Part shown: positions 1 to 59,919 of the stretch, piece by piece
Layout of the letters: every line of letters starts with the position of its first letter
Position numbering within the stretch: position 1 is the first letter of the stretch
Virus genome (UHGV): UHGV-0342645
From: a virus
Direction: 5' to 3' (one strand)
Length of the DNA: 59,919 nucleotides
Made by a program: the position numbers and the translations under genes
The notes under the pieces: generated by a model
Told to the model about the DNA's origin: nothing
Databases searched by the model: none
The model's input: only the letters and a program-made list of their open reading frames with translations

Positions 1-29
1 ACACTAATAGCTACAGAACTCTTTTTCAT
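1..29 (-). CDS. 5' end of head scaffolding gene, split by the window boundary (continues at 59919 if circular)
   Basis: ATG at 29-27 preceded by GGAG RBS; reading off the left edge and re-entering at 59919 is in frame, with no stop, with the scaffold ORF at 59876. Confidence 0.4.
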
Positions 30-124
30 TTCTTATCTCCGTTGTCACCCGTGTGACGTTTTTGGGGCTGAGCCGTCCCAGCCCCGTGTTCGTTAATATA
101 AACCAATCAATTTGGAAGTTGCAA

Positions 125-1621
125 CTATTCTTTATCGGAAGCGTCGTCTTCCTTAGGATCTTTGTTTACTTGCTGCTCTGCGTTTAAATCAGCTTTAGCA
201 TCATCGGGCAGAGGCCACTTCTTAAGCTCTTCTTCAAGAATTGCCATTTCTTCTTCAAAGCTTAGTGTGGTCAAGCCCTGATCAACAAGCCAGCCATGAA
301 TAGACTGCAAGCTGATCGGAGCCTTAAGGTTGCGTGCAGTAATAATTTGAACAAAGTCCTGACCGTTAAACATGCTCTTGGTAAATTCAAGATTAGGCTT
401 AACCACAACCTTCTCTGGATCAGCACCCATCCATTTAGCACAAACCTTCAGCAAGTTTTCCAAACCTGCCGCACCAGTATACGCAATTCGAATCAGGCTA
501 GCGGTACGCGCAGCAATACGCGTTTTCATAGCTTCGCCCGATTCCTGCGTGCTCTTGGTGTTGTTTACCATCTGCCCGGCTTTAATCTGAGCTTCTTGCT
601 TATCCGCTGCTAATGCGAGGCGTTGCTCGGACAAACCGTCACCGCTAACGCCTACATATTTAGCGTCACCACCAATAGCAACGTTAATGACCGCTCCAGG
701 ACCGATGCGCTGAGGGGCTTTATCTCCATTCTCCCCAGTACCGCCAACAACAACTAATGTGTCCTGCCCCTGCATATGCAGACTCTGACGGTAATCAGCA
801 TCACTTCGGTACATGCTTAGGCAGATGTTAGCTAGCCCCAATAATGGTGGCGCTTCCGGTGCTGGGGTAATATCTGTCGTATTAACAAACTGGAAAGGTA
901 TTTCGTCCAGCGTGTTACCTTTATAATAAGGAGCAATCATTTGCCCTTCATCATAATTGGTATTGTTGATAAACAAATGCTGGGAGTAGACCGCCCCACC
1001 TGCAACTTCATCTGTGTCCATCGGGCCTAATTGCAGGACGCGATAACGCTTCTCTTCTTTCCAGTCAAACTGATTGACACGTACAGGACCGCTTTCATCC
1101 AGAACAACCATGTTCAAGTTGATATTGCCTAATTCATCTTTACCATCATCCCAGTTGATAATGGATAAAGCATCATAAACGCTAATATAAGGTCTGTTAT
1201 TTACATCCTCACCTTTCGGCAAGTCCAGCAGCAGGCCCAAACGTCCATTTTTTAACTGCATTTCGTTGATGCGACGTAGCAGAGCAATAATGTCTTCACC
1301 GTCCGCAGTACACAGCTCCCGCATGTACTCCATTTCAGGAGGAAGCTGGATTGTAGGAGGCTTCTGGTGCAACAGACCTAAATTGTTTGTGACCGCACTT
1401 GAATAATCGTCAGGGAAGTTAGCACGCAGACGATAAGCAAGCCAACGTTGAAAGCCCAAATCATTAGGATTATTCATCCCATCAATAATCATGGAAGCTA
1501 AAGGTGGTAGATATTTAACACCTTCTTCCTTAATTTTATCTTCACCCTCATAGCAGTCGTTGCACTTAACCCATGCATCCTTCCACTTGTCATATAGCGG
1601 GTGAGTTGCATCAATACCCAT
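125..1621 (-). CDS. portal protein
   Basis: 498-aa ORF immediately downstream of the large terminase in a terS-terL-portal order; size typical of portals; no motif-level confirmation. Confidence 0.6.
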   Translation of the reverse strand: MGIDATHPLYDKWKDAWVKCNDCYEGEDKIKEEGVKYLPPLASMIIDGMNNPNDLGFQRWLAYRLRANFPDDYSSAVTNNLGLLHQKPPTIQLPPEMEYMRELCTADGEDIIALLRRINEMQLKNGRLGLLLDLPKGEDVNNRPYISVYDALSIINWDDGKDELGNINLNMVVLDESGPVRVNQFDWKEEKRYRVLQLGPMDTDEVAGGAVYSQHLFINNTNYDEGQMIAPYYKGNTLDEIPFQFVNTTDITPAPEAPPLLGLANICLSMYRSDADYRQSLHMQGQDTLVVVGGTGENGDKAPQRIGPGAVINVAIGGDAKYVGVSGDGLSEQRLALAADKQEAQIKAGQMVNNTKSTQESGEAMKTRIAARTASLIRIAYTGAAGLENLLKVCAKWMGADPEKVVVKPNLEFTKSMFNGQDFVQIITARNLKAPISLQSIHGWLVDQGLTTLSFEEEMAILEEELKKWPLPDDAKADLNAEQQVNKDPKEDDASDKE

Positions 1622-1632
1622 ATACCCTCCAG

Positions 1633-3192
1633 TTAAATACCGATAGTTTTACCAACACCTGTATAAACAGCTTGATCCAGAACCATATAACGTACTTCAT
1701 CCCCCATATGGTCTTCGCATTCCGTATCAACGTCGTCCTGATCTACTTCATCGCGCGGAAGACTTGGAACCAGCTCAAAGAAATAATTGCAATTATCGAA
1801 AACATACATTGCTGGATTTTCACGTGGTCCCGGCAAAGGTTTACCGTTTGCATCTTCCCGCAACGCGGCTTTAAGAAACTCACGCATTTTCTGCCATCCG
1901 CGTTTACGCGACCCAGCAGATTTATCACTTCTCTTCCAATGGATGCCGTTATACAGCTTGCCGTTGAGACGGATTTTCTTCGCCATTGTTGCAGCGGTGG
2001 AGTTATTGTTCTCCAGATCCCAAATAGAATTATCCGCAGGTCCAGGAACTACACGGTCGTGTATGCCCCAGGCCAATTCCCGCTCCAGTATACCGCTTGC
2101 AATCTCTGAGTCCAGCAAATGTAGACCTTCGTTTGTTTTACCGTTAGTGCCGTACCATTCGTTAATACGGAACAAGTCACCGCGTACAGTAGAGAATGTA
2201 GTACCGTCCTCACGTACAACATCCGAACCGTCACTAATAGCCCACCAGCCAACGGAGAATGGTTTTGAAGAACCCCAGTCGAAAGAACGTGTAATCTTCC
2301 AGCTTGATGGGATTGGGAATGGGCGTATTTTATGAACAGTGCTACGCCACAGATCATCGAACATACCGCCGGAGGTGATATCCCAGCTACCGCCTAACCA
2401 TGCAGCTCGTTTGTTCGGATCTGTGATGGACATAAGCTCTGCAATATATTTCGGGCTCAGGTTTTTGTTCTCGCGGTAAGATCCGAAGATATGGCATTGC
2501 GTCGTAACCACATCTTCCTCTTTCTGCGTCCGCGGGTTAAACACTCGCGTAGTTTTCCTGAGTATCTTACCCATCGGTGCAGCATCAATGAAGCGTTTCT
2601 TAACCCAGTTATGCCCCGCACCAAACGGGTTACTGGTAGCAAATACTTCCAGAGGAATGTCTGGTAAATATGTGACAGTACCGTCCGGATCGATAATTGG
2701 ATTATCTTCGGGTAGGAAGGATGAACGGTTACAGGACATCATTGCTTCAAACAAACGCCCGTCCGGATACTTTGTTAATTCGTTCCATCCGATAAACGGG
2801 TATTCGTGACCATGATAAGACCAATAATCCTTTTCTTTGCAAGCAACACGGAACAGCAATTCTTCCCCAGTGGGCCAAACCCATTTATAATCAGACTTCG
2901 AGCTAAGGAATTTAGCACCATCTTTAAATTCAGGGAACCAACGCTGTGATTTGGTTACAAGGTCATCAAGGTTTTTATATTCACGATCGAATATAATACC
3001 CTTCCAGAATTTACCGTACCCTACGCCAACATTCTTACGGAAACGCATAAGCTGGCAGTCCGTCTTTCCAGGACCGCGAGTACCGTGGTATAAAATGATA
3101 TCAGCAGGACAGGATAGAGCGAGTGTCTGTGAACCTGGATGTGGCTTCCAGACTACTCGCGGCATGTTATCAGGTTGTCGGTTTAGCTCCAT
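1633..3192 (-). CDS. terminase large subunit
   Basis: 519 aa; N-terminal P-loop-like GTRGPGKT; overlaps the small-subunit gene; followed by portal. Confidence 0.75.
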   Translation of the reverse strand: MELNRQPDNMPRVVWKPHPGSQTLALSCPADIILYHGTRGPGKTDCQLMRFRKNVGVGYGKFWKGIIFDREYKNLDDLVTKSQRWFPEFKDGAKFLSSKSDYKWVWPTGEELLFRVACKEKDYWSYHGHEYPFIGWNELTKYPDGRLFEAMMSCNRSSFLPEDNPIIDPDGTVTYLPDIPLEVFATSNPFGAGHNWVKKRFIDAAPMGKILRKTTRVFNPRTQKEEDVVTTQCHIFGSYRENKNLSPKYIAELMSITDPNKRAAWLGGSWDITSGGMFDDLWRSTVHKIRPFPIPSSWKITRSFDWGSSKPFSVGWWAISDGSDVVREDGTTFSTVRGDLFRINEWYGTNGKTNEGLHLLDSEIASGILERELAWGIHDRVVPGPADNSIWDLENNNSTAATMAKKIRLNGKLYNGIHWKRSDKSAGSRKRGWQKMREFLKAALREDANGKPLPGPRENPAMYVFDNCNYFFELVPSLPRDEVDQDDVDTECEDHMGDEVRYMVLDQAVYTGVGKTIGI

Positions 3193-3727
3193 CTTCAGTC
3201 TCTTTAACTAGTCGTTGTTGAGACTCGGATGCAGTTTTTTCCCATTCGTCAATATTTGCTACAGCAGGGACTATCATTACGCCGCCTCTGTTAGTAACAT
3301 CAATTTTAGCCTTCTTGGGAGCATCCAAATCATAAATTTGTGCAAGCTTGCCCAATGCGGCTACTCTAGCAGCTTGAGAAGATCCCGGTCCTGTATAATG
3401 AGCTTCACGTTTTAATGCTTCAATGATATGCTGACGCTCTAGGTCTGCTTCAATGTTAGCTTGCTCAGAAGTACGTTGAACACGGGATCTTTCAATCTCC
3501 TTGAGCTTCCATCGAACGTAACAGTCCGTGGCAAAGCGTTGGCCAAGCTCCTGTGCAAACATAGCATTGAACCCGCATCTCATGCAAGCGTTAGTCCAAT
3601 TGTAGTCGAACATATACTCAGCAACAACTTTGTCACGTATTGCCATCTCGTCAGCGGACAAGCTATTTGCATACTGGATATAGTTCGTCCAGTCACGATC
3701 ATATTGCTCTTGACTTGCCCCGTTCAT
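3170..3727 (-). CDS. terminase small subunit (putative)
   Basis: 185-aa ORF directly upstream of and overlapping terL; positional call. Confidence 0.45.
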   Translation of the reverse strand: MNGASQEQYDRDWTNYIQYANSLSADEMAIRDKVVAEYMFDYNWTNACMRCGFNAMFAQELGQRFATDCYVRWKLKEIERSRVQRTSEQANIEADLERQHIIEALKREAHYTGPGSSQAARVAALGKLAQIYDLDAPKKAKIDVTNRGGVMIVPAVANIDEWEKTASESQQRLVKETEDGAKPTT

Positions 3728-9898: not shown

Positions 9899-9994
9899 CT
9901 AATTTCGCATTGCTAGTACAACAATTAGCACCATTAACATTGCTCCAGCTACCATACCGAGCACAAATACACTAGCTAATCCGATTAAACTCAT
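9899..9994 (-). CDS. small hydrophobic peptide (31 aa)
   Basis: GGAGAT RBS 6 nt before ATG; MSLIGLASVFVLGMVAGAMLMVLIVVLAMRN is a single TM helix; below the ORF-track size cutoff. Confidence 0.3.
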   Translation of the reverse strand: MSLIGLASVFVLGMVAGAMLMVLIVVLAMRN

Positions 9995-10199
9995 TTCAAT
10001 ATCTCCGATCAGTTTTATATCATCCATATTTTAACACTAAACCCAGTATATAGAAAGCGTGAAATACTCAAGGGTCCGTTTTTAAGGTAGGTGGGGTCAT
10101 GGATGTAGGTGGATAGTAAAGTGATGGGTGAGATTTAGACAAGGACTTACTATCAGGATGGACAGGGCACGCCCCAGCGCTCCAAGTACCTGGAAAAGG

Positions 10200-10320
10200 A
10201 TGGGTCGGGTTGCGCGGCTGGGCCTGCGTGGGTCGGTGTGCGCTGTGCGAGCTGTGCGCCACGCTGTGCGCCTGTTTCACCCGAGCTAATGCATTACCAT
10301 TGCCTATATGCATTAGCTCG
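10200..10320. repeat. GC-rich GCTGTGCG direct repeats followed by a 13-bp perfect palindrome
   Basis: gtgtgcgctgtgcgagctgtgcgccacgctgtgcg then CGAGCTAATGCAT-N13-ATGCATTAGCTCG (10282..10320) in a non-coding stretch. Confidence 0.6.
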
Positions 10321-10340
10321 CTAGCGTGGCGCTGTGTGTG

Positions 10341-10499
10341 TTATAGCGCCGCTCCTCCTTTGCGGGCTTTACGTGCTGCATAACGCTGTTCCCTTACTTC
10401 GTTGTATTGGCGATCCCATTTAGCATCCATTACTTCGGTTACGATCAGTGCTACCAGTGGACTTACTACTGCGATAACCATCATAATTAAAATTAACAT
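10341..10499 (-). CDS. small membrane protein (52 aa)
   Basis: GGAG RBS; MLILIMMVIAVVSPLVALIVTEV hydrophobic N-terminus and basic C-terminus; not in ORF track (<60 aa). Confidence 0.35.
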   Translation of the reverse strand: MLILIMMVIAVVSPLVALIVTEVMDAKWDRQYNEVREQRYAARKARKGGAAL

Positions 10500-10548
10500 T
10501 TTGTTTACTCCGTTATTTGGTTGATGTATGTAGTATCCACCAGACCGA

Positions 10549-10731
10549 TCACGATGTCCAGATGTTTTGGTCGATTAATTTTGCATAGAAGTCGCGCCCT
10601 GTCTGCATGGCTTGGGACCAGTTGGTTTCTTCCCATTCCATGCGCATAACCTGCAATAATAACGCGTGTTGTGCGCGGGTAAGTTTGTTTTTACTGGACA
10701 TAATATACCTCTGCATAGTTAAGTTAGCCAT
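10549..10731 (-). CDS. hypothetical small protein
   Basis: 60-aa ORF (or 50 aa from internal ATG with GAGG RBS); first gene downstream of the candidate leftward promoter. Confidence 0.35.
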   Translation of the reverse strand: MANLTMQRYIMSSKNKLTRAQHALLLQVMRMEWEETNWSQAMQTGRDFYAKLIDQNIWTS

Positions 10732-10782
10732 TTTGTGTACCCCTTTAAGTTAAGTTTTACTGTATTACCTTGCTATGTGTAT

Positions 10783-10811
10783 ATAGTAATGCTAGACCTA
10801 AAACTTGCCAA
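10783..10811 (-). promoter_or_regulatory. candidate sigma70-type promoter for the leftward early operon
   Basis: Minus strand TTGGCA-17 nt-TACTAT followed by an AT-rich leader to the ORF at 10731. Confidence 0.35.
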
Positions 10812-10948
10812 GTGTTTTTGCACTTTTTATAAAAATATTTTGGCACCTTTTATGCCTGCGTGTGCGTGCCCGCGCGTATAGTGCAATTCGTGTGATGTTA
10901 GTTAGGCCGTTTGTGCTAAACATGCAGGGCAAGCATAATTTTCACTAG

Positions 10949-11206
10949 ATGCAAAACAATATCAAAATAGCACTTTTGGCCTATTCAATATCACGATGCA
11001 AGGCTATTATTACTTCAACAAAGCAATACTGCTTAACCACATTAGGTAGCATCATGGAATTCAAATTAGTGGGACTCGAGTCCGGTAAAATAGCTGGTTA
11101 TGTATCTGCTCCAAGCTGGGAAGAGGCCGAAATCTTCTTAATGGGTCAGTTCGATATGTACATTAGCGAAATTTACAAAGAATACGATTTAGTCCAAATT
11201 AAGTGA
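10949..11206 (+). CDS. hypothetical protein
   Basis: 85-aa ORF; start uncertain (internal MEFKLVGLE possible). Confidence 0.25.
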   Translation: MQNNIKIALLAYSISRCKAIITSTKQYCLTTLGSIMEFKLVGLESGKIAGYVSAPSWEEAEIFLMGQFDMYISEIYKEYDLVQIK

Positions 11207-11274
11207 TTTATATCTTGCCTAGTTGATACGACTGGGCAATAATAAGTCAACTTAAACAAAACGAGGATTACATC

Positions 11275-11523
11275 ATGGCTACTTCTATCGTCACCAAATT
11301 TTTGGCACCAACTAACACCAAAGGCGCACGCATTGCAGTTAAAGGTTTTGGCAAGCGCAAAGTCTATAGCTGGGACTATGCACTCGACGTAACGCTTAAC
11401 CATAAAGCAGCGGTACAGCAGTTCCTCAAAGCGTTTAACGCCGAAAACGACACCGACTATGGCATCGTTGCTTTCGCAAGCATGGATATCGCAACCGCCG
11501 ATTTCGTAGCAATCGTGCAGTAA
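11275..11523 (+). CDS. hypothetical protein
   Basis: 82-aa ORF with GAGGA-like RBS. Confidence 0.4.
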   Translation: MATSIVTKFLAPTNTKGARIAVKGFGKRKVYSWDYALDVTLNHKAAVQQFLKAFNAENDTDYGIVAFASMDIATADFVAIVQ

Positions 11524-11596
11524 GTTTTCTTATACACTGCTCATCATTACGGTGGGCAGTAATAAGCAAACTAACATTAACGAAAGGAGATATACC

Positions 11597-12169
11597 ATGT
11601 CTAAAGTAACTCACCGCGAACAGGACAAAATGCGCTACACCATGAAAACGAATGCACGCCGCGCCCTTAAGACCCGTTGGGGCCAGGTTGCACGCGATGC
11701 ACACGAACAGTTAATCCATCAGGACGATATCGGTTTTTACATCGTCGAAAAGGAAGTCCTTCAGGTTCTGCGCGACCATGAAAAAGCTCAAAAGCCGGAG
11801 CAGAAAGTCCCAGCACCGACCGCCGCGCCAGCTGCCCGCGTCTCGGTACTGCGCCCGATGGTAAATCCGGAAATCGTCAAAAGCTGCCTCGAAGCTCTGG
11901 AGCAGGAGGAAGAGAAAGATATGAAACACGCAAAAGCTGCCGCACCAAAACAGGATGCAAAAGCTGCTCGCTGTGATTTCAAAAATGGCGCTCGCAAGCC
12001 GCTCAAAGGAAAAACTGCCGAAGTGTGGGCAATGGGTGACAAACTTCTGAAGGAACTGGGCCGCACGCCGGAGCTGAAAGAAATGAAAGCTGCAATGCCT
12101 TCTTACAACGGGACAACTGTTGCCATTCAGTTCTACGCCTGGCGCAAATATAACGACCTGGACGCATAA
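11597..12169 (+). CDS. hypothetical protein
   Basis: Internal ATG (MSKVTHREQ) preceded by AAGGAG RBS; 190 aa, basic, Ala/Lys-rich centre. Confidence 0.45.
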   Translation: MSKVTHREQDKMRYTMKTNARRALKTRWGQVARDAHEQLIHQDDIGFYIVEKEVLQVLRDHEKAQKPEQKVPAPTAAPAARVSVLRPMVNPEIVKSCLEALEQEEEKDMKHAKAAAPKQDAKAARCDFKNGARKPLKGKTAEVWAMGDKLLKELGRTPELKEMKAAMPSYNGTTVAIQFYAWRKYNDLDA

Positions 12170-12209
12170 TCTATAACCACACTGTTCACTGACGGCTTCT
12201 GCGGGAGCC

Positions 12210-12545
12210 CTATTTAAGATAAAGATTTTCAATCATATCGTTTTTCGGGTCGTTAATATACTTCCCGAAGACAGCTTTCTTACCCTGCGGCCCGTGGAAC
12301 ATTTCGTACACAATACGGGTCCGTAACACTTTACGGTTTTCCCCGCCACAAATTGGAGCAAGACTAATCCTAGCTTGCAGATGAGCAGCGCATATATCCT
12401 TAGCTTCGTCACCTTTAGTTATGCCATATTTTTTAAAAGACTTCTTCCAGAATAAATCCCCGTCGCGGTATTCAAAATATTTATTCCAATTAGGTTCCTT
12501 CTTCCACCAGTGCTTTTCATAATCCCATTCAAGGCTCATAGTCAC
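12210..12545 (-). CDS. HNH/NUMOD-like homing-endonuclease relic (degenerate)
   Basis: C-terminal RTRIVYEMFHGPQGKKAVFGKYINDPKNDMIENLYL follows the HNH_3 pattern (HRLV..F.GNP...VNHIDGNK.NN..NL) but lacks the catalytic His; opposite strand to flanking genes. Confidence 0.3.
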   Translation of the reverse strand: MTMSLEWDYEKHWWKKEPNWNKYFEYRDGDLFWKKSFKKYGITKGDEAKDICAAHLQARISLAPICGGENRKVLRTRIVYEMFHGPQGKKAVFGKYINDPKNDMIENLYLK

Positions 12546-12754
12546 TCCTCTTGATGATTTAATTTGCGCGCGCTACGTAAGACAGCCTCCTTAGACTTGT
12601 TATCGCGGCTGCGGCTACCCGTGTTACCGGACCGCTGCAATAACTCCTCTCTGCCTTAACGCAGATTATAGCTTGATATACCTTCCGATCACAATAGTTC
12701 AATAAATTTGCCTCAAAAGCACTTGACTTCTCGTTTTTGATCTGCATCCGTTCA

Positions 12755-13230
12755 GGTTTATGAAAGTTTATAGAGTTTATATTGTGAAGTATAAACAATC
12801 ACATAATACCAATAGGTACTATATACATTAATAATAAATCCTTATTTTATATATATTTATAGTTATTATTAATATTAGTTTAATTTGGTTTATTTTAGTT
12901 AGTTGACTGAAAGTTTATAAGTTTATAGGGGTATACTCCCAACTTTTTTCAGATAATTAATAGTATAGTAGTGATAGTGGTTTTTGCACGTTTTCACTAC
13001 TACTACTAATTATTTGTTTGAAAAGGGGGTAATAAGGGGAAACCGTAAACTTATAAACTTTGCTCTGTGTAAAAATAAAAAATTAGTGAATAGTGAGATA
13101 GTGGTTCATAGTGGCAAACTTTTACAAAGCGAGTAACGACGCACTATACACATTTTGCCCACTATGTACGCCACTAAGCACTATATTAAAACAATCCTTG
13201 CAAATAGCTAATGTCTGTTTTATAGTGGCT
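12755..13230. repeat. AT-rich iteron-like repeat region (GTTTATA and ATAGTG/CACTAT motifs)
   Basis: GTTTATA copies at ~12756, 12766, 12775, tandem AGTTTATAAGTTTATA at 12912-12927, inverted copy at 13047-13059; at least 8 ATAGTGG/CACTAT-type motifs between 12960 and 13230; no credible ORF. Confidence 0.6.
13198..13226 (+). promoter_or_regulatory. sigma70-type promoter for the rightward operon
   Basis: TTGCAA-17 nt-TATAGT, about 28 nt upstream of AGGAGG RBS and the ATG at 13254. Confidence 0.55.
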
Positions 13231-13253
13231 TCACCAGTTGACTAGGAGGATTT

Positions 13254-13982
13254 ATGAGCGAAGAAACTATTACGTCTAAAACTGTGGTTAAAGATTTGTG
13301 CTATGTTGCATGGGTTGCTCAAGCTTGCTCGCAGTTGCGCGGTGCACCAACCAAATCACAGGCGCTTGCTATGGTGGAGAATTACTTCAACGATGATTTG
13401 GAACAGCCAGTTAAAAAATCTGTAAGACCGAAAGCGGGAAAGCTGGATGCAGAACGGGCGACTTTTCTTGCATGGGTTAGCGATAAGCTGGGCCATGAAC
13501 TGGATGCCAAAGAGCTTCGCAGCTATACGGGCAAATTCAATTACCACACGGGCAAGGGTAACGACCCATATGAAGAAGCATTTAAGGTGAAAGAAGATAA
13601 GGGTAAGGTAGGGCGCAAGGAAAACGTCGAGCTTAAAGCATGGATAGAGCGCCAAGCTTTGCTCAAAGGGGATTCTCTGACAGATAAGGAAGCGGATAAA
13701 TTGACACATCGTTGGTACAGGATGCGCCGGAGCGGCGATATCCAGGACTGGGATAATCGCGGTCGCTGGCCTACCTGTTCCCTGCACCATTACGAAACCG
13801 CTACCGCTATCCGTGTCAAGCTTGGCGCTCATTGGGTAGACCTTGCAATATACAAGGATGCTGAGCAGGCTAAAAATATTCTTCCGAACATTGATAATTG
13901 GCTTATTAGCTTAAGACAGGGAAGGGAACCACAGGACGTTATGTTAGAAGTTGGTAACCATATTATCACAACTCCGCACTAA
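13254..13982 (+). CDS. hypothetical protein
   Basis: 242-aa ORF with AGGAGG RBS; first gene of the rightward arm. Confidence 0.55.
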   Translation: MSEETITSKTVVKDLCYVAWVAQACSQLRGAPTKSQALAMVENYFNDDLEQPVKKSVRPKAGKLDAERATFLAWVSDKLGHELDAKELRSYTGKFNYHTGKGNDPYEEAFKVKEDKGKVGRKENVELKAWIERQALLKGDSLTDKEADKLTHRWYRMRRSGDIQDWDNRGRWPTCSLHHYETATAIRVKLGAHWVDLAIYKDAEQAKNILPNIDNWLISLRQGREPQDVMLEVGNHIITTPH

Positions 13983-31362: not shown

Positions 31363-31363
31363 A

Positions 31364-39635: not shown

Positions 39636-39646
39636 AGTAGACCTCC

Positions 39647-39931
39647 TTAAAGGTCGCTTTCGTTATCCTGCTTGGAACTGGGCTTTTCAGATTCAATCAT
39701 TCCAAGTACCGCAATAACTTTAACAGCAATACGCTGAGCCAGACTGATTTGCTGCTGGGTTAATTTTCCGGTCGACACCACAGTCATTAACCCGCTCAAG
39801 TTTCCAAGAGACTTGAAATCGCTGAATGCTGATTTCATAATACTAAGTTGATCATGACCTTCATCAGCTATAACATGAGCACGAATAGAAAGTCCTTCAA
39901 CAACTTTATCAATACCTTCATTCTTCGTCAT
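39647..39931 (-). CDS. hypothetical protein
   Basis: 94-aa ORF. Confidence 0.4.
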   Translation of the reverse strand: MTKNEGIDKVVEGLSIRAHVIADEGHDQLSIMKSAFSDFKSLGNLSGLMTVVSTGKLTQQQISLAQRIAVKVIAVLGMIESEKPSSKQDNESDL

Positions 39932-40448: not shown

Positions 40449-40463
40449 GTCGGCTTCCTATTA

Positions 40464-40832: not shown

Positions 40833-40903
40833 GATAGTACCTCTGTTAAAAGCGCCCCAAGCGGAGGAGCGAAAGGCGCTTTAGTTTAACCACACTTCAA
40901 CGA

Positions 40904-41611: not shown

Positions 41612-41746
41612 AGGAAAATCTCCATATATGGATTTGTTAAGCGGATGTAACCAACTGGTTACGAAGTAAAGCATACCCCTTAACATGCTTTTTACAATGA
41701 TCCATATGTAAAGATTTTGTAAATTAGGATTGACAGCCAATAAAAA

Positions 41747-41775
41747 GCGCGCCCGAAGACGCGCTGTTGAAGTCA
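41747..41775 (-). terminator. rho-independent terminator
   Basis: Minus strand AGCGCG-TCTTCGGG-CGCGCT followed by TTTTTATT, just downstream of the fibre gene stop at 41783. Confidence 0.55.
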
Positions 41776-41782
41776 GATGTGG

Positions 41783-42763: not shown

Positions 42764-42772
42764 AACTACTCC

Positions 42773-43048
42773 TTAAGCCCATTCTCTTAGAGGTTGATCA
42801 AGAATAACACTGTGGTTACTGTACTGGGTAAAATCAAATGAGTCATCAATAACTCTTACGTTTACATAATATCCTTCATTTTGAATATATGTTGGTTCGT
42901 CTGATAGACTTTCAACTTCTGTATAGGTGTAGCCTATTACGTCAAGTAAAATCTGGTTTTGCAAAGTTTCATTGTATTCCCAATCAATAACCACAAGGAA
43001 ATCTTCAAATGCTTTCTTATCCTTAAATTTCATCGTTAAGTCTTTCAT
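42773..43048 (-). CDS. hypothetical protein
   Basis: 91-aa acidic ORF between the two fibre genes. Confidence 0.4.
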   Translation of the reverse strand: MKDLTMKFKDKKAFEDFLVVIDWEYNETLQNQILLDVIGYTYTEVESLSDEPTYIQNEGYYVNVRVIDDSFDFTQYSNHSVILDQPLREWA

Positions 43049-45183
43049 ACAGACTCCTTCATTTGACGATCTGTTAATTCTTTATGCCAGATTCTAAAGT
43101 TACGAATGTGACCGAAAAGATGACGTAGGCCGCTATTATTCTGCCCGCCAATCCTGAAGAAATAACCAGATTTAACACCGACATGATCCGTGGTTTTAGG
43201 AGTCCCATGCTGGGCATTGCTAACGAAATGCACATTACCAGATTCATTTAAAACAAATCCAAGAACAGATTTTTGTTCAAATAATACTGGCGATACGGCA
43301 ACTACTGTACTACCGTCTTTATTGTACATCGTAACACTAGGAAATAATGTTGAACTAATAGCAACACTTATATATTGACCCGGAGTTGTGCTCCCACCAC
43401 TGGTATCAAAAATTCGTGGTGCTGCATTTGGCGTTTCGTTCCAGTTTGTATGAACTTCAGCTAGAAATGTTAAAGGTGGTGTACCGATATTGTTATTTGT
43501 TGGTATATTCACCATATCACTGGCTCTTGTGACTGGCGTTTCCTCAGTAATAATAAACGAAGAAGCGCACGAACCGCCTTCGAGCTGAGGAGTTGCAACA
43601 TAAATATAATCATCTGCGCCAGTGCTTCCCCCTTTTGGTGGTGCATATTGCACCATCGCACCGATCATATTTTCTGTATCAAGTGCCTTAATTGTTGCCT
43701 CAAAGAAAATCCATTTGCTTGCTTCATTTTTAACAGCCCTTGCAGTAATACGACTTGCATCGCCGCCAGTTTTATCAATCGATAAATCTGTCATATTTAA
43801 GAAAGCATCACCCACGAATTTGTGGGTAGATCCATCATATTCTTCAAATCGTAATCGACATCTTAAATTTGGAGTCCCACTTTGTACCCTGCATGAGATA
43901 GTTACATACTTTTCATCGCCGGTAACATCATATCCTTTGCTTCCAGATACTGTGACAATAGAAAGGGATGAGGTTTGCCCCACCATTTCTGGTTTTAATG
44001 TGAATTTTGCGTACTGGAAACCAAAATCATCTACACCTGATGTATTTAAAATCATATTTGATGACTTGTTCCACTTTGATGGATTTGTGCTATTTATTAA
44101 CAGGTTTGTACGCTGCCCTTCAATCAGCAATCCATACTTTTCAAAGCGAGGTTCATCGATTGCAGCCTCTGTCAGCACACCAGATTTATTAATGTAAGTT
44201 GCTTTTGATGCACGTTTAAACTTAACAATCTTGTCACCAGGCATTGTAATTTCATCGTCATCAATTACAATCTTTTTATATGAAGGCGAAAAGCCCGTAA
44301 TCATATCTAGAGAATCGTTAAACGGTATCCACACATCAGGTAACGGCTGAATTTCTGGTGCATTGTTGGCAGCAGATTCCGCACGGTCAGCTTCCGTCTT
44401 TGCACGGTCCGCGTCGTTTTTAGCTGCGGTTGCGCTTGTGCTTGCGTTACCTGCTTGTTTTCCGGCTTCGGTAGCACTATTACCCGCTTCCGTAGCAGAA
44501 GCAGCGGCAGCGTCTTTTAAAGCGGTAGTTTCGGACACAGCGGCATCTTTAATTGCTTGCGTCTCACTTACTGCATTGTTCTTAATAGTCTGTGTATTGG
44601 ACTTTAACTTTTCAACATCCTTTTTGAGATTTGTTATTGTGGTTACAGCTTGTGTTGCAGTGTTGGCGGAACCAGCAGCACCTGCTTGTGCTTGTTTAGC
44701 TGCATCCGCGTTGGCCTTAGAATCATTCTTGTAAGTTAATGCTTGACTTGCTGAGGTTGCAGCCGCCGCTTTACTGTTACGTGCGTCCGTAGCGTCTGCG
44801 TTTGCTGCCGCAGCAGAACGTCCAGCTTGTAACGCATATTCCTCAGAGTTAGCCACAAGTCGCTGGACTTGCTTAATAACGTCCGGTGTCAACTGTTCCG
44901 GAGCCCAGTTAATCAAATAGCCGTTGAGCGAACCTTCAGGACTATCGCCATAAATAACAATTTCACCCGCTTTATAAGGCTCAATACCCTGCGGACCAAT
45001 GATCACCTTATAATGGCCTGTTTGTACGGTTACATTGTACGCACCTTCCCCGTCTGTGCGGAATATTGCTTCACTTCCGTTCAATACCGTAATTGTATTT
45101 CCTTTTGCAATAAGCGCAACCGTAGCGTTGATAATTGGCTTATTCAAACCATCCAGCAAGATACCGTGCAAGCGCGTAGCCAT
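43045..45183 (-). CDS. tail fibre protein
   Basis: ATG with GGGAGA RBS (track start is GTG at 45195); about 712 aa; Ala-rich coiled-coil region (AKQAQAGAAGSANTATQ...) and beta-rich C-terminal domain. Confidence 0.55.
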   Translation of the reverse strand: MATRLHGILLDGLNKPIINATVALIAKGNTITVLNGSEAIFRTDGEGAYNVTVQTGHYKVIIGPQGIEPYKAGEIVIYGDSPEGSLNGYLINWAPEQLTPDVIKQVQRLVANSEEYALQAGRSAAAANADATDARNSKAAAATSASQALTYKNDSKANADAAKQAQAGAAGSANTATQAVTTITNLKKDVEKLKSNTQTIKNNAVSETQAIKDAAVSETTALKDAAAASATEAGNSATEAGKQAGNASTSATAAKNDADRAKTEADRAESAANNAPEIQPLPDVWIPFNDSLDMITGFSPSYKKIVIDDDEITMPGDKIVKFKRASKATYINKSGVLTEAAIDEPRFEKYGLLIEGQRTNLLINSTNPSKWNKSSNMILNTSGVDDFGFQYAKFTLKPEMVGQTSSLSIVTVSGSKGYDVTGDEKYVTISCRVQSGTPNLRCRLRFEEYDGSTHKFVGDAFLNMTDLSIDKTGGDASRITARAVKNEASKWIFFEATIKALDTENMIGAMVQYAPPKGGSTGADDYIYVATPQLEGGSCASSFIITEETPVTRASDMVNIPTNNNIGTPPLTFLAEVHTNWNETPNAAPRIFDTSGGSTTPGQYISVAISSTLFPSVTMYNKDGSTVVAVSPVLFEQKSVLGFVLNESGNVHFVSNAQHGTPKTTDHVGVKSGYFFRIGGQNNSGLRHLFGHIRNFRIWHKELTDRQMKESV

Positions 45184-45201
45184 AATTTCTCCCACATTTA
45201 A

Positions 45202-45229
45202 TTGACTTACTCAACCTAACAAGTATATT
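45202..45229 (+). promoter_or_regulatory. sigma70-type promoter of the lipoprotein moron
   Basis: TTGACT-16 nt-TATATT about 38 nt upstream of the lipoprotein ATG. Confidence 0.5.
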
Positions 45230-45266
45230 AAACTTGAACCTTGACAACAACCTAAAAGGAGTCCCG

Positions 45267-45500
45267 ATGAAACGTTCTATTGTAATTTTAGCATTAACAT
45301 TTCTGTTAGCTGCTTGCGGTACTGGTCTGGACACAGGAAAGCCTAATTCCGGTGTTATTCCAAAACCTTTAGACCGTGACGGTAACGGTTCTTTAATCTA
45401 TGATACCGAAAAACTTCCAATGACTGGGCAATGGTGTCATGAGATTGATCACGAGTACCGACGAATTGGTAGTCCTTCCAACTGTGTTATAGATTACTAA
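45267..45500 (+). CDS. cor/llp-like lipoprotein (candidate superinfection-exclusion protein)
   Basis: AAGGAG RBS; MKRSIVILALTFLLAACGTG is a signal peptide with lipobox LAAC; 77 aa; plus strand between minus-strand fibre and tail-tip genes. Confidence 0.55.
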   Translation: MKRSIVILALTFLLAACGTGLDTGKPNSGVIPKPLDRDGNGSLIYDTEKLPMTGQWCHEIDHEYRRIGSPSNCVIDY

Positions 45501-45506
45501 AAATTA

Positions 45507-45530
45507 CCCCGCATTAGCGGGGTTTTGTTT
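45507..45530 (+). terminator. rho-independent terminator of the lipoprotein moron
   Basis: CCCCGC-ATTA-GCGGGG followed by TTTTGTTT. Confidence 0.6.
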
Positions 45531-48492
45531 AACCAGTGAATGAACCGGATCCGTGCGAAACAATAATAGTAGGCGAGGCTATATACGCCCCTCTATTGTT
45601 CTGAGCGGAAATTGTAATTCTTACCGTAACGTTTGGACCAGTTACAACAGCAGAATGCATAATAAGTCGTTCTATATCCTGTACTCTGGAAGAGCCCTCA
45701 GATCCGTTAATATTTATCGTACCTGCACCATTCCCACTCACGTTTGCTATAACACAGACGTGTCTTGCGTGACCTGAGGAGGATGAATCTGTGTATGTCA
45801 TTACCTTTTCCAGTACACCGTTATTCGTTCGACTTACATTCGTCCCAGTATGCATGTTTGCAATATCGCCAATAAAGCTTTGAGCTTCAACAGTTCCGGT
45901 AAACTTACCATTAGTTGCATACACGGTCCCTCTAAACTCACCGTTGGTTGCGTAAATAGTCCCTCTTGCAATTATGTTGTTAACGTGGAAATAACCGTCT
46001 TTAGTAATTGCCCAACCTTGATCGTCACCGTTCCAGTTATAGGATTGAATAATATTACCAATTTTTGCGTTATTGATAGAACCGTCTTCAATGAAGCCTT
46101 CACGAATAAAGGTTTGACCGTTCTTAATAACAAACGCTAAGCTTGCAGCCCCCGCTACCGGATTATAAACAGCAAAGTTGTCCGCACTTACCATCCAGTA
46201 TGATTGATATTGCCCACCCTGCCCTTCCACGCCCATCTGCATACCAGCAACGTATTTATTTCCGTTGTTGTCAATCTGAACCTTCTGCCCCCATTGTGCG
46301 GATAATTTACCGTTTAAATCAGCAAACGCGGAAGCTTGTTGTTGTACAGTAGCGCTAACATTGCCCACACTGCTCTGGACTGAGTTGATCTGCTCCGTAT
46401 ATTTAGTGTCATTTTCCTCTATAGTTGTTTGAAGGGATGTCACACCATCTTCAACTTCTTTAACCGTTGCAACAAGATTTTTATATGATTCAGTTTGCGA
46501 TAACGTGTCTTCTACAAAGTCAATCAGCTGTCCAGTTTCTGCATGAACTACAGCCGCAACTTCCACGAATGCGGACGAACCAAATGCGTTTATCGAACGG
46601 ACGTACCAGTAATAAGTGTGGTCATTCTTAAGGTTTTGGTCGGTCCATGTTGTACCCATCCCTTTTCTTGTTGCTTGCGCTTCAACAATTTCGGTTGCAT
46701 AAGATGGTAATTTTGTTTCACCGGATGTCCAGAAATCAAATTGCGTACTAACGCTAGTCAAATCTTTAATACGCGGAATTAACGTTATAGCAAAATACCC
46801 ATTTTGGACTTCTACATTGGACGGAGGTGGCGGTGCCTGAATGTTAAATTCCAAATAGGCTTCAGGCGACACAGCACCATTATAGCCAACAGCTTGCACA
46901 TGAGCGGTATAACCGCCGCGCAATAGCCCAGTTACACGCACGTTCTGCCCAGGAACCTGTGCGGTCCATATCGTTTGCCCGTTCTGCTTAATTGCAACAC
47001 GGTTATATGAAAAAGATCCTATATTGCTCCACGTTAATACACCTTGTACAACGTCGCTAATCTGCAACACCTGATACTGCAAATTCTGAGGTTGGGGGAT
47101 TCCACCAGTAGGAAGATCGACAAGATCCGGACGCTCTATTGGTTTACCGATAGCATCATCCCACATCTCAAGGAAGTCCTGACGTAATGTAAGGTTAACA
47201 CCTCCTTTAGGATCAAAAGACCATTTAGTTACACGCATTTCAACATCGCGCATACCAATCTGTGGGATTGATACTTTTAAGTACATGCCTGGGCGGAATT
47301 TATACCCCTTCATATTACAAGGAATTTCAAGCGTTCTGCCTACACGTTTACGACGTAAAATAATATTTGCAAGACGCTGGGCTTGGTATGGACTTACAAC
47401 GAAGCGGTATTCCATATCCTGCGTGATTTCCCCTCCATCTTTCTCCACCCATTCCTTAACCACAACTGAGGGGAAGTCTGCTTCTGTATAGTTTTGTTCC
47501 GGATCGATGAATGTACCTGTGATGGTGTTAGTACGGTCTTTATATGATGTCTCCGGTACTATTTTAATATCACCAGCAATACAACTTTCGTCCAACGTCA
47601 TTGTTGCAGGGCCGTAATAAGCGCCAACAAGCAAGCCGTGTTTACCCCCAATATATGTTAGTTCACCGCCGCAAGCTTCCAGCATTGCATCGAGTATTTT
47701 GGACGGGGCCTCTTCAACCTCAAACTCGCCATTAATGCGATAGCGGCGTTCAGATGTACCATCTGCGTTATTTATGATTTCATCACAAATATTGGCAGCT
47801 TCAATAAACTGATCCCAGTTTATGCTGGAGTCTTTACGATTTAAGTACACACGAAAATAATCCAATATCACTAACGCAGCGTTATCGCTAAAGACTTCTG
47901 TCCCTGAACGCGGGTCGTACACCCTTCTACCTTTCTTTAAAACTTTAACGTTAGGTAAACCAGAAGGGAACTTTTCAGCATCAAACTTATAGGTCAGTCT
48001 TAGCCATGCTAAACCTTTACCAATCATGTCCTCCTTCCACGAAGGACAATTATTCAACATATAGGGGTCAACTGTTTGACGGTCGTTATGAAACTCCCAC
48101 GATACCAAATCCCCAAAAGTTTCAATAGCATCGTCGCCAAGCCATATTGGTCCTATCCCTTCTAGCCTATGGGATGCAAGGACAAGCACCATATTTAGAA
48201 TTTCTTTATCATCCTGATCACCAGCTTGTTCCTCTGCAAAGGATAATAGACCGGATGAAACAGTTGTACCGTAGACAACAACTCTTGAAGAGGCAGCGGA
48301 CCGCAAAACTTGTTTACGTTCTTGCTGACCTTTAAAGGCGTTGAAATCAAATTTAGGCGTTTTGGTAAGCAAAGCACCCGCTGCGGTTGCAGCCATGCCT
48401 ATCACTAAAGCGGTTGTAACGGAAATAATACTAGCAGCCGCGGCAGCGGACGCGCCTAGTGCAATTGCTGCTCCAATTATTGCTGGTGGCAT
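45529..48492 (-). CDS. tail tip / host-specificity protein (J-like central fibre)
   Basis: 987-aa ORF directly after the K/L-like minor tail genes; size and order as in the lambda tail module. Confidence 0.6.
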   Translation of the reverse strand: MPPAIIGAAIALGASAAAAASIISVTTALVIGMAATAAGALLTKTPKFDFNAFKGQQERKQVLRSAASSRVVVYGTTVSSGLLSFAEEQAGDQDDKEILNMVLVLASHRLEGIGPIWLGDDAIETFGDLVSWEFHNDRQTVDPYMLNNCPSWKEDMIGKGLAWLRLTYKFDAEKFPSGLPNVKVLKKGRRVYDPRSGTEVFSDNAALVILDYFRVYLNRKDSSINWDQFIEAANICDEIINNADGTSERRYRINGEFEVEEAPSKILDAMLEACGGELTYIGGKHGLLVGAYYGPATMTLDESCIAGDIKIVPETSYKDRTNTITGTFIDPEQNYTEADFPSVVVKEWVEKDGGEITQDMEYRFVVSPYQAQRLANIILRRKRVGRTLEIPCNMKGYKFRPGMYLKVSIPQIGMRDVEMRVTKWSFDPKGGVNLTLRQDFLEMWDDAIGKPIERPDLVDLPTGGIPQPQNLQYQVLQISDVVQGVLTWSNIGSFSYNRVAIKQNGQTIWTAQVPGQNVRVTGLLRGGYTAHVQAVGYNGAVSPEAYLEFNIQAPPPPSNVEVQNGYFAITLIPRIKDLTSVSTQFDFWTSGETKLPSYATEIVEAQATRKGMGTTWTDQNLKNDHTYYWYVRSINAFGSSAFVEVAAVVHAETGQLIDFVEDTLSQTESYKNLVATVKEVEDGVTSLQTTIEENDTKYTEQINSVQSSVGNVSATVQQQASAFADLNGKLSAQWGQKVQIDNNGNKYVAGMQMGVEGQGGQYQSYWMVSADNFAVYNPVAGAASLAFVIKNGQTFIREGFIEDGSINNAKIGNIIQSYNWNGDDQGWAITKDGYFHVNNIIARGTIYATNGEFRGTVYATNGKFTGTVEAQSFIGDIANMHTGTNVSRTNNGVLEKVMTYTDSSSSGHARHVCVIANVSGNGAGTININGSEGSSRVQDIERLIMHSAVVTGPNVTVRITISAQNNRGAYIASPTIIVSHGSGSFTG

Positions 48493-57891: not shown

Positions 57892-58953
57892 TTAGGAACC
57901 CTGATACTCACGAGTGATCAGGCGTGCGACTTTAAGCTGCTTGCGCTCAAGGAACGCACGACGCCAGGAATCTTCATGGGCCAGGTTGTTAGTGGTAGCA
58001 GCGTTAGACGGACCACCTTTAGCAGTTTGGGCAGCAGCCCAAGCATGACCGACCGGATGCAGAATCCATTCAACACGGTTGTGAAGAACTTCTTCACCAG
58101 CACCATTGTTAGCAGCTTCGTCACGAACCACAGCGGTCGGAACTTTTGGTGAACCAGCACCCATTGCAGTCGCGCCCGGGCCGAACAGCCAGCTTTCAAA
58201 GATACCAGTAGACGGATCGTGCGGCATGGAGTCGTCTTCAATAATACGCAAACCCTGATAATACTCGAACTGAGTTTCACCGCGAGCATCCGGAATGAAG
58301 TCGATCAGGTTCAGCTGACGCATACGATTACGAACGGTAGAGTGTACCATAATCATGGTCAGACCACGAGCAGCATCACCCATCGTTGCAGTTGCGTTGA
58401 TGAAGTTAGACGCGGTAAAGTTGGTCTGGTTGTTTACAAATGAAGAACCGGAAATATCGAACGTCAGATCGTCCGAATGGGATTTCTTGGCATTAGCAAA
58501 TACACCTTTCCAGGTTGCAATGTATGCAGCTTGCAGACGGCGAACCCACCACGCAGACACGCGATTACCGATAGCGGTCATTGGGTCGTTACCAATCAAA
58601 GCAGATACCAGATCCGCAGAACCCCAGGATTTTGAGCGACTCATACGAACCTGAACTTCAGATCCGGTAGTGATGTTTGACGGTTTGGACGGAGCACCTT
58701 TATCGATCGCAATATCTTCGTCTTCGTCTTTCAGGTCATTATAGAACGGCTCGTTAAAAGTCAAACCTGCACCAGCAAGGTTAGCAGATAAACGCTCGTC
58801 CATTACAACTGCACCGGATTGAATCAGAGCAGAAAGTTCAGCGGTCTGCGTCTGCACATAACCAGTGAAGATTTCAGGGACGATCACGTCAGCCAAACGA
58901 GTCAGGTCACTGTCACCACGACCAAATGGCAGAATAATTTTAGATTTAGACAT
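57892..58953 (-). CDS. major capsid protein
   Basis: 353-aa ORF between scaffold and the capsid-proximal terminator; followed by decoration and connector genes. Confidence 0.65.
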   Translation of the reverse strand: MSKSKIILPFGRGDSDLTRLADVIVPEIFTGYVQTQTAELSALIQSGAVVMDERLSANLAGAGLTFNEPFYNDLKDEDEDIAIDKGAPSKPSNITTGSEVQVRMSRSKSWGSADLVSALIGNDPMTAIGNRVSAWWVRRLQAAYIATWKGVFANAKKSHSDDLTFDISGSSFVNNQTNFTASNFINATATMGDAARGLTMIMVHSTVRNRMRQLNLIDFIPDARGETQFEYYQGLRIIEDDSMPHDPSTGIFESWLFGPGATAMGAGSPKVPTAVVRDEAANNGAGEEVLHNRVEWILHPVGHAWAAAQTAKGGPSNAATTNNLAHEDSWRRAFLERKQLKVARLITREYQGS

Positions 58954-59075
58954 ACTTGTCTCCAGGAAAAGGATTGATTTGTTTACTGTTGGTAGCCTTT
59001 CCCCGTGGAAGGCTGTTTAGGAACCCGTGTCCCTGATGTGTTGAAACTTAACATCAGGGACGTCGGGATGTCAAC

Positions 59076-59876
59076 TTATTTCTTAGCAGGACGTACAGGC
59101 TTCAGTGGGTCTACGCCATTCTTTTCAGCTAAACGTTTAGCTAAAGATTGGTTAGTTTTCCAGAGATTCATCTGCTTAGAGATGTTCCAACCGTCGTGAC
59201 TGTATGGATCTTCACCGTGATGGCCACCCGCGCCCGGACCAGATGCACCACCACCAGCAGATCCTTCAACCCAGTGCGGACGTTTCGGAAGGATTTCGTT
59301 CAGCCAGTCCGCCGGAGTTAGGTAAGGAGTTACACCAGCCCCATCTTTCGTAACCACATTACCGTTCTCGTCGACAGTCATTTGCAACTGCGCATAAGTT
59401 ACAGCGTCTTCGATAGCAGATGGACGCAATTTAGCACCAGAAGCAGCGGCAATAACTGCATCTTTAATCTTCGCTTTAGTTTCGCGAGTGCGGTAGCCTT
59501 CAATTTCCTGCTTAACCGTGTCACGCTCGGCGATAACAGTTTGCAATTGACGCTCGAGCGGCGCAAGACGGGCTTTGACCATCTTCTCAATGTCTTCCGG
59601 ATTGCCTTTACCGTTAGCAGCAGCTTCCAGCTCAGGGATACGATCCAAATCCGCCAGGACTTCTTCAACTGGACGCCCCAGTGCGCTAATTTGTTGTTTC
59701 ACCTGACGATGATCGTTACGCTCTTTTGCTAACGCACTTTCCAGACGACGAACGCTATCAGCAGGTGCTACACCTTTGACTTTTGCAAGAACGTATTTAC
59801 CGCCCTGCTCTGCGTAAAGAGTTGCAAATTCCGCTGGGATTTCTTCCGCAGATGCGTACTCGTATTGTAATTCCAC
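59076..59876 (-). CDS. head scaffolding protein (5' end lies across the window junction at 29..1)
   Basis: Acidic coiled-coil-rich ORF directly upstream of the capsid gene; track start is a GTG, in frame with ATG at 29. Confidence 0.5.
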   Translation of the reverse strand: MELQYEYASAEEIPAEFATLYAEQGGKYVLAKVKGVAPADSVRRLESALAKERNDHRQVKQQISALGRPVEEVLADLDRIPELEAAANGKGNPEDIEKMVKARLAPLERQLQTVIAERDTVKQEIEGYRTRETKAKIKDAVIAAASGAKLRPSAIEDAVTYAQLQMTVDENGNVVTKDGAGVTPYLTPADWLNEILPKRPHWVEGSAGGGASGPGAGGHHGEDPYSHDGWNISKQMNLWKTNQSLAKRLAEKNGVDPLKPVRPAKK

Positions 59877-59919
59877 ATCACCTTCACCGCGAGCGCGTGG
59901 ATTAATTAAAGCAAAACCA

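Follow-up and report, generated by a model that had tools for sequence, protein, structure and literature searches.

The stretch of DNA considered here, a phage sequence of 59,919 bp that we will call the window, begins and ends inside what appears to be one and the same gene. Do its two ends adjoin one another in the phage, and, if they do, what does this say about the DNA that is packaged in the virion? On the minus strand, a GGAG (40-37) is followed after 7 nt by an ATG (29-27) and the codons AAA AAG AGT TCT GTA GCT ATT AGT GT, at which point the frame runs off position 1. Continuing from 59919 downward completes codon 10 (GT/t) and proceeds through MKKSSVAISVGFALINPRARGEGDVELQYEYASAEE to a stop at 59078-59076, which yields a joined minus-strand ORF of 290 aa. 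The remaining two frames over the junction are full of stops. The initial annotation had described both the ATG with its GGAG, reading off the left edge, and the stop-free continuation into a scaffold ORF, and direct reading bears out the two statements. Taken by itself, such an in-frame join proves little, since its chance prior is about one in three.

Homology across 59919/1 is what makes the junction more than chance. The last 1000 nt and the first 1000 nt, once joined, match 34-35 Seuratvirus records in a single piece (query 1-2000) at 93-97.5% identity. The alignment of these 2000 nt to phiG7 has 51 mismatches and that to Seurat has 135, neither with a gap, so no base has been lost or doubled at the junction. 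A metagenomic contig of IMG/VR, UViG_3300029643_000005, also spans the junction, at locus positions 2846/2847. The coordinates of the joined ORF are those of the annotated 873-nt gene found between portal and capsid in both phiG7 and Seurat, to whose products its own product is 99% and 98% identical, respectively, with no indel. Negative GC skew is unbroken at both window ends, and the order terS-terL-portal on one side and scaffold-capsid on the other, which had been read as continuous over the junction, is upheld by PHROG matches, all on the minus strand (Table 1). A search for a terminal direct repeat within the window found none. From these comparisons, we conclude that position 59919 is truly followed by position 1 in real DNA.

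Table 1. Features of the window that bear on the junction, the packaging genes and the predicted DNA terminus. A slash marks the predicted cut.
Feature	Position	Strand	Basis or remark
Head-scaffolding gene, 5' end	1..29	-	ATG 29-27; codons 1-9 and two bases of codon 10; record cut here
GGAG ribosome-binding site	37..40	-	7 nt upstream of ATG; Seurat RefSeq ribosome-binding site at homologous position (L002 5037-5040)
Portal protein	125..1621	-	phrog_145, E 7e-119; Pfam DUF4055; 98.8% identical to ECP2304 portal
Terminase large subunit (TerL)	1633..3192	-	phrog_2, E 1e-34; PF03237 Terminase_6N
Terminase small subunit (TerS)	3170..3727	-	phrog_5334, E 1e-59; 99.5% identical to ECP2304 TerS
Predicted physical terminus	10146..10178	-	reads GCTGGGGCGTGCCCT(10164)/G(10163)TCCATCCTGATAGTAAG; cut predicted between 10164 and 10163
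DTR-equivalent region	10164..12973		ECP2304 DTR (1-3695) mapped onto the window; left limit uncertain by at least 50 nt
Radical-activating enzyme counterpart	28698-29405		synteny with phiG7 gene
7-cyano-7-deazaguanine synthase counterpart	30055-30762		synteny with phiG7 gene
7-deazaguanosine-inserting enzyme counterpart	33729-34649		synteny with phiG7 gene
Major head protein	57892..58953	-	phrog_247, E 7e-104
Scaffolding gene, remainder	59076..59919	-	third base of codon 10 to stop 59078-59076

The joined product matches phrog_206, head scaffolding protein (E 4e-44), with residues 26-276 aligned to profile positions 3-262 of 263. Coverage of most of the protein by this profile, together with a site flanked by the portal gene and that of the major head protein, identifies it as a head scaffolding protein. 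Its N-terminal 24 aa are kept in EC151, 9g, K9PH25C2 and Vibrio AQKL99, with M1, R20 and G21 invariant. Because these first 24 residues are conserved across the Queuovirinae, the record must be cut in codon 10, and the scaffolding gene that is split in the window is intact in the phage itself. Were translation to start instead at the GTG at 59876 (266 aa), the ATG at 29 would be spurious and the cut would fall in an untranslated leader. Such a start is in keeping with the PHROG profile match, which, in the 290-aa product, opens only at residue 26, with several distant homologues (Pseudomonas, Stenotrophomonas) that align only from residues 21-37, and with the ORF listing, which gives a GTG ORF at 59076-59876. 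We nevertheless consider it very improbable. The ATG is preceded by GGAG at a spacing of 7 nt, whereas upstream of the GTG there is only AAGGTG at 2 nt; the annotated relatives all begin at ATG; tblastn alignments to EC151, K9PH25C2 and Vibrio phages begin at residue 1; and the N-terminal segment is constant in length, keeping its three invariant residues at 38-51% overall identity. A further alternative holds that the in-frame join is coincidental, the contig being incomplete or mis-joined with sequence missing between its ends. The one-in-three prior would allow this, but single-piece, gapless homology over the junction to 35 genomes of isolates and to one contig from metagenomic data, a gene length equal to that of the relatives, and a window that is as a whole a rotation of phiG7 leave it next to no chance of being correct.

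Judged by such comparisons, the window is an ordinary E. coli phage of the genus Seuratvirus (Queuovirinae), represented by one complete unit-length genome. It is collinear with phiG7 but rotated, such that 1-22580 corresponds to phiG7 37376-60274 and 22454-59919 to phiG7 1-37375, with 51.6 of the 59.9 kb covered by blastn. Megablast of 25-kb window segments against Seuratvirus gives 79-95% coverage at 90-95% identity, which amounts to high nucleotide identity to members of the genus over most of the genome. The unit lengths of ECP2304 and yong3 are 59,895 and 59,399 bp. The rotation of phiG7, the match to the ECP2304 unit length and the IMG/VR contig across the junction together indicate one complete unit, and the proposal of the initial annotation that a full genome had been linearised within a gene is sustained. 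Strand blocks and GC skew reveal a bidirectional layout, in which late and early genes occupy opposite strands; both the strand switch and the minimum of the cumulative GC skew lie near 10 kb. A 7-deazaguanine gene cluster, assigned purely from synteny with phiG7, adjoins the polymerase. Gene order is that of ECP2304 (OR880647.1) and of other Seuratvirus genomes (Seurat, CAjan, phiG7 and the BASEL isolates), from which the window differs in its left repeat boundary, in its tail-fibre module and in the stretch immediately inside the repeat boundary.

That the ends join does not establish headful circular permutation, since collapsed direct terminal repeats (DTRs) equally give a circular assembly. 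The initial annotation had called the genome circularly permuted; this stands for the record only, and for virion DNA the records of relatives show instead fixed ends with exact DTRs. The ECP2304 record, for which a literature search found no paper, carries an exact terminal repeat of 3,695 bp (1-3695 = 59896-63590, 100%). It runs from end to end with both copies, whereas the window, which opens within the scaffold gene, carries one. Hafnia phage yong3 (OM868075.1, Seuratvirus) likewise carries an exact repeat, of 3,424 bp (1-3424 = 59400-62823, 100%), although it has a different host from that of the window, a scaffold protein only 54% identical and a record flagged 'circular'. When aligned, the two repeats have right boundaries that coincide to the nucleotide, immediately ahead of (A/G)TCCATCCTGATAGTA. 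The left boundary is not conserved among ECP2304, yong3 and the window.

Comparable ends occur further afield. Nonagvirus phages 9g, HdK1 and HdSG1 belong to the same subfamily as the window and have the same bidirectional layout. The HdK1 and HdSG1 records have DTRs of 3,367 and 3,363 bp, which take in the first early genes and stop within the early/late control region. In both records the DTR terminates at ...GCGGGGCGGCTC/, precisely where the published reads of 9g pile up (28,243) in a single one-sided peak that defines this end from reads. In the work of Korf et al., the genomes were linearised at ends defined from reads. The Nonagvirus phages differ from the window in having a control region without detectable similarity at the nucleotide level and a TerS 46% identical; their TerL is about two thirds identical to that of the window, as judged from a 60-80% band and one record taken as a nonagvirus. 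BLAST of the 9g control region, with its read-defined end, against the window returned just 11-14 nt chance words, so the 9g end is not transferable by similarity. Pseudomonas phage iggy (Iggyvirus), whose genome is of the same bidirectional type and whose record opens in the divergent region, has DTRs determined experimentally by Nanopore mapping, but these measure only 1,091 bp, and iggy has a different host and a GC content of 56%.

The sequence found at the Seuratvirus boundary is present in the window. The TCCATCCTGATAGTA block, which is common to ECP2304 and also conserved in SLUR75 and phiG7, occurs in one minus-strand copy (10146-10162), the sole site of this 17-mer even when up to three mismatches are allowed. 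The boundary shared by ECP2304 and yong3, and the single block in the window, point to a conserved, sequence-specific terminus among these relatives. By analogy with them, this phage would cut at 10164 and bear a repeat of about 2.8 kb (3.4-3.7 kb in the relatives). The DTR-equivalent region is single copy in the window and holds the divergent early/late intergenic region (approximately 10732-11053) together with the first early ORFs and small ORFs of the late strand; its left boundary is not precisely placeable, owing to the lack of conservation among ECP2304, yong3 and the window at that point. Just before the predicted cut, a GC-rich motif, GCKGGGGCGK, occurs in one window copy (10169-10178) and resembles the Nonagvirus terminus. 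This pattern was picked after the data had been seen, and the likeness is suggestive only; between 40-nt segments of the Seuratvirus and Nonagvirus cut sites it was not significant, with 261 of 2000 shuffles reaching the observed score. Scans of 9900-13300 for promoters and terminators gave chance-level results, and a repeat search of the same interval gave nothing outstanding. An exact 15-mer scan of IMG/VR returned mostly chance matches along with three Seuratvirus contigs, none of which begins or ends at the terminus. The start of the SLUR75 record, some 230 nt from the predicted terminus, was considered as a physical end and rejected, since the record is opened arbitrarily and its ends share an assembler overlap of about 113 nt. 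Related records are often opened at the terS start by convention.

Given the conserved boundary of the relatives' DTRs and the presence of its sequence in the window at 10164/10163, packaged DNA with fixed ends and a long DTR is most likely, the window then being an assembler-closed circle cut arbitrarily in codon 10 of the scaffold gene. The terminase would cut concatemers at the conserved site, which would place one end at 10164, immediately ahead of TCCATCCTGATAGTA as read on the minus strand, and the second end near 12.97 kb; the repeat would take in the first early genes along with the divergent early/late control region. Short-read assembly would collapse one repeat copy, and it is for this reason that the window ends would join. 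The assembler would have closed the genome into a circle, a property of the assembly and not of the virion, and the sequence would have been written out from an arbitrary point. As the window holds one repeat copy only, the packaged DNA probably exceeds it in length by about 2.8 kb. The initial annotation had held that its reading would be overturned by fixed physical ends elsewhere with extra sequence between 59919 and 1. Although fixed ends elsewhere are indeed likely, those two positions have no extra sequence between them.

The chief alternative to fixed ends is headful (pac) packaging, whereby virion DNA would be terminally redundant and permuted and the circular assembly would reflect that permutation. 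Headful packaging was inferred in the Seurat genome paper from a TerL comparison, the contig having been closed by PCR, and assemblies of OddieOddie and of the BASEL Seuratvirus isolates circularised; circular closure, as stated in the literature, nevertheless fits either model. For Vid5, circular permutation has been reported, though the data were not shown; the papers on BME3 and EC151 contain nothing that bears on the question. Acinetobacter phage Loki, a pac-headful siphophage with a DUF4055 portal and a circular assembly, falls in the broad TerL group of the window, and its DNA is permuted according to BAL-31 digestion, whereas the closest relatives of the window show fixed ends. In TerL, moreover, relatives with DTRs are closer to the window (ECP2304, 99.4%; yong3, 89%; iggy, 63.8%) than is IME_AB3, a close relative of Loki (49.7%). 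Pfam puts the window TerL in Terminase_6N, its sole match (26.6 bits), a placement in keeping with headful packaging, but the relatives of this TerL include both permuted phages (the Loki group) and DTR phages. A PDB sequence search with TerL gave no match at E up to 1, nor did an NCBIfam search with TerS, TerL and portal give any, so named families assign no packaging class. The single one-sided read peak of 9g would, on its own, also fit a pac site, but headful packaging would not be expected to place that peak and the DTR ends of HdK1 and HdSG1 at one nucleotide. Nor would it be expected to produce exact repeats of 3.4-3.7 kb with the same boundary nucleotide in two phages of different hosts. 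On this evidence, we regard headful packaging as unlikely.

For annotation, 1-29 and 59076-59919 should be merged into a single scaffolding gene and another opening point chosen for the record, or a gene caller will lose the true start. An assembly that circularises should not be read as evidence of a headful, permuted and likely generalised transducer; database records for this group point to fixed ends and a long repeat. With fixed ends, the virion genome would measure about 62.7 kb and not 59.9 kb, and such ends bear on which genes enter the cell first and on transduction risk in phage therapy candidates. Nothing here is new in kind, the finding being an ordinary one.

We lean, on balance, towards extending the arrangement to every Seuratvirus, including the type species, which was published as pac-headful. 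All members would then share a conserved cut before TCCATCCTGATAGTA, fixed ends and a repeat of about 3 kb that carries the early promoters and first early genes, and the end would be a recombination hot spot. Homology to the window starts at the predicted terminus in 7 of 36 Seuratvirus records; under this genus-wide extension, the switching of alleles exactly at the terminus, in about one fifth of genomes, would result from the DNA end acting as such a hot spot.

The ends of the window are established to be adjacent and to split the head-scaffolding gene. A query made by joining the last 1000 nt to the first 1000 nt of the window matches 35 phage genomes in one piece (1-2000, 93-97.5% identity), all 35 being Seuratvirus by classification or by behaviour. 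These 2000 nt align without gaps to phiG7 (51 mismatches) and to Seurat (135 mismatches), with the 40 nt on each side of the join near-identical to both. In both phages an annotated 873-nt gene lies between the portal and major head genes and coincides exactly with the joined ORF in its coordinates, and the joined protein is 99% identical to that of phiG7 and 98% to that of Seurat, with no indel. A metagenome-derived IMG/VR contig (UViG_3300029643_000005) also passes uninterrupted through the join, at 2846/2847 of the piece L024. The gene order by PHROGs is terS, terL, portal, scaffold, major head, and Pfam matches in this block are Terminase_6N and DUF4055. The proposals of the initial annotation that 59919 adjoins 1, and that gene order continues over the join, are thus borne out. 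No direct repeat common to both window ends was found.

Codon 10 is completed when reading continues downward from 59919, and the product is then 290 aa long (MKKSSVAISVGFALINPRARGEGDVELQYEY...); the remaining two frames are closed over the join. The in-frame reading from a minus-strand ATG preceded by GGAG had been described accurately. Since the chance prior for an in-frame join by itself is ~1/3, homology is the decisive test. A start at GTG 59876, which would place the record cut in the leader, has to be considered because the PHROGs scaffold profile match begins only at residue 26, the position of that GTG. Such a start is at odds with tblastn alignments to the distantly related EC151, K9PH25C2 and Vibrio phages, which begin at residue 1, and with the N-terminal segment found in all six aligned proteins (38-82% identity), which is of similar length and has M1, R20 and G21 invariant. 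The GGAG is moreover well spaced before the ATG, and the Seurat record has an annotated RBS at the same place. We conclude that the record cut falls in codon 10 of the scaffold gene. Its conserved N-terminal segment looks like a putative signal or membrane anchor; neither the PHROGs profile nor the homologues from Pseudomonas and Stenotrophomonas contain it. The 9g record carries the comment 'putative porin; GP20 family'.

Features in the window and in related records (a slash marks a boundary or cut)
Feature	Position	Strand	Remarks
RBS GGAG	40-37	minus	seven bases before ATG
Scaffold start codon ATG	29-27	minus	then 9 2/3 codons up to position 1
Scaffold residues 1-24	29-1 + 59919-59877	minus	MKK, hydrophobic stretch, R-G
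Scaffold stop codon	59078-59076	minus	end of joined 290-aa ORF
Predicted terminus	10164/10163	minus	reads ...GCTGGGGCGTGCCCT(10164)/G(10163)TCCATCCTGATAGTAAG
ECP2304 repeat right boundary			...CCCTT/ATCCATCCTGATAGTA
yong3 repeat right boundary			...GGGAT/GTCCATCCTGATAGTA
Onset of similarity in seven genomes	10163-10170		Skure, Dru_SM1, GottfriedDienst, SA126VB, SLUR25, SLUR63, ECP2304
GC-rich stretch	10220-10330	minus	reiterated GCGCACAGC-like words
Perfect 13-bp inverted repeat	10282-10320		CGAGCTAATGCAT / ATGCATTAGCTCG, arms 13 nt apart
AT-rich stretch, ~1.1 kb	12170-13253		between early genes, without ORF >50 aa
Perfect 16-bp inverted repeat	12910-12925, 13046-13061		in AT-rich stretch
7-deazaguanine DNA-modification cluster	28698-34649	plus	phiG7 counterparts by synteny: radical-activating enzyme, 7-cyano-7-deazaguanine synthase, 6-carboxytetrahydropterin synthase, GTP cyclohydrolase I, 7-deazaguanosine-inserting enzyme
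Tail-fibre/receptor-binding region	39624-45959		one 74% block with phiG7

The window is established as a complete unit genome. Window 1-22580 corresponds to phiG7 37376-60274 and window 22454-59919 to phiG7 1-37375, without change of strand or order, so the two records are mutual rotations, each with its ends falling in the interior of the other. ECP2304 has a unit length of 63,590 - 3,695 = 59,895, which is equated with the 59,919 of the window. Together with the cut in codon 10, this upholds the reading of a full genome linearised within a gene. Both window ends have negative GC skew, and the skew turns near 10 kb and near 40 kb, a pattern that fits a single late block wrapping round the join. 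Seuratvirus record openings vary: a stated convention puts the opening of many at terS, and others were opened arbitrarily. The finding is an ordinary one, a phage assembly circularised in the routine way and then cut open arbitrarily.

The phiG7 record has an annotated 127-bp 'repeat_region' at both ends (L003 1-127 and L004 17773-17899, copies identical), which maps once in the window, internally at 22454-22580, inside the ligase and ATPase genes. Because 127 is a usual maximum assembler k-mer, this looks like an untrimmed circular-contig overlap, not a real terminal repeat. SLUR75 (LR025197.1) is another untrimmed circular assembly: its ends overlap by ~113 nt (L018 1-120 versus the last 120 nt of L019), and its deposited length is too long by ~113 nt. 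In contrast to the ECP2304 and yong3 repeats described below, the positions of these two overlaps bear no relation to each other, and both have the look of k-mer overlaps.

A circular assembly can stem from permutation or from non-permuted terminal repeats, as has been pointed out in papers on related genomes, and the literature for this phage group is mixed. Pac-headful packaging was inferred for Seurat from TerL comparison; Vid5 was called permuted (data not shown), and Loki was found permuted by BAL-31 digestion, the TerL of its close relative IME_AB3 being 49.7% identical to that of the window. The TerL of iggy is 63.8% identical to that of the window, and Nanopore mapping gave direct terminal repeats of 1,091 bp for this phage; in 9g, reads pile up sharply at a single position, 28,243, which lies in the early/late control region. 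The records of HdK1 and HdSG1, the two nonagviruses of Korf et al., who linearised genomes where reads ended abruptly, end at ...CGCCGCGGGGCGGCTC, the nucleotide of the 9g pile-up, giving three phages from two laboratories with one end in common. Both have exact terminal repeats (HdK1, 1-3367 = 60693-64059; HdSG1, 3,363 bp). Within Seuratvirus, ECP2304 and the Hafnia phage yong3 have exact terminal repeats of 3,695 bp and 3,424 bp, respectively, whose right boundaries align at one same nucleotide; assembler overshoot was rejected as their origin, since it would not halt at an identical base in both phages. No documentation of how these two records' ends were defined was found in the literature covered, and the resemblance between Seuratvirus and Nonagvirus cut sites is without statistical support. 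Fixed ends with a long terminal repeat are probably the mode for virion DNA and the better-supported model, and pac-headful packaging appears unlikely. The term 'circularly permuted' stands for the record and probably fails for the virion, given the ECP2304 and yong3 repeats and the boundary sequence in the window. The one mildly interesting aspect is that the packaging mode inferred in print for the type species conflicts with the records of close relatives. The yong3 record (OM868075.1) is flagged circular yet holds its 3,424-bp region twice, one copy per end, so that as a circle it would contain a tandem duplication; flag and sequence are inconsistent.

Transferred to the window, the repeat boundary gives the predicted terminus. 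The window has a single copy of the 17-mer that follows the cut, even at <=3 mismatches, and conservation of the block extends to SLUR75, phiG7 and ECP2304. With ECP2304 the window shares 99.5% identity in TerS and 99.4% in TerL, so its terminase is expected to cut with the same specificity. In 7 of 36 Seuratvirus records, the part similar to the window starts only a few bases away from the terminus (query 195-203; terminus at 201/202), which makes the terminus a mosaic boundary as well. At least two unrelated alleles exist for the sequence immediately inside the repeat, which would fit recombination at DNA ends. The ECP2304 repeat maps to 10164 to ~12973 (~2.8 kb), over the divergent control region together with the first early ORFs; lack of conservation at its left boundary makes the left limit uncertain. 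This region is single copy in the window, so packaged DNA would be ~62.7 kb. The GC-rich stretch close to the predicted terminus on its inner side, which SLUR75 and phiG7 have in conserved form, may serve for binding of the terminase or a regulator. The left ECP2304 boundary maps into the AT-rich stretch, which could contain the left terminus, a replication origin, or both.

Elsewhere in the window, the 7-deazaguanine cluster, assigned by synteny with phiG7, is the expected subfamily signature. Between flanks that are 90-95% identical to phiG7, the tail-fibre/receptor-binding region otherwise shows nucleotide similarity to it that is slight or absent, and by this comparison is a probable host-range module swap, typical of the group.
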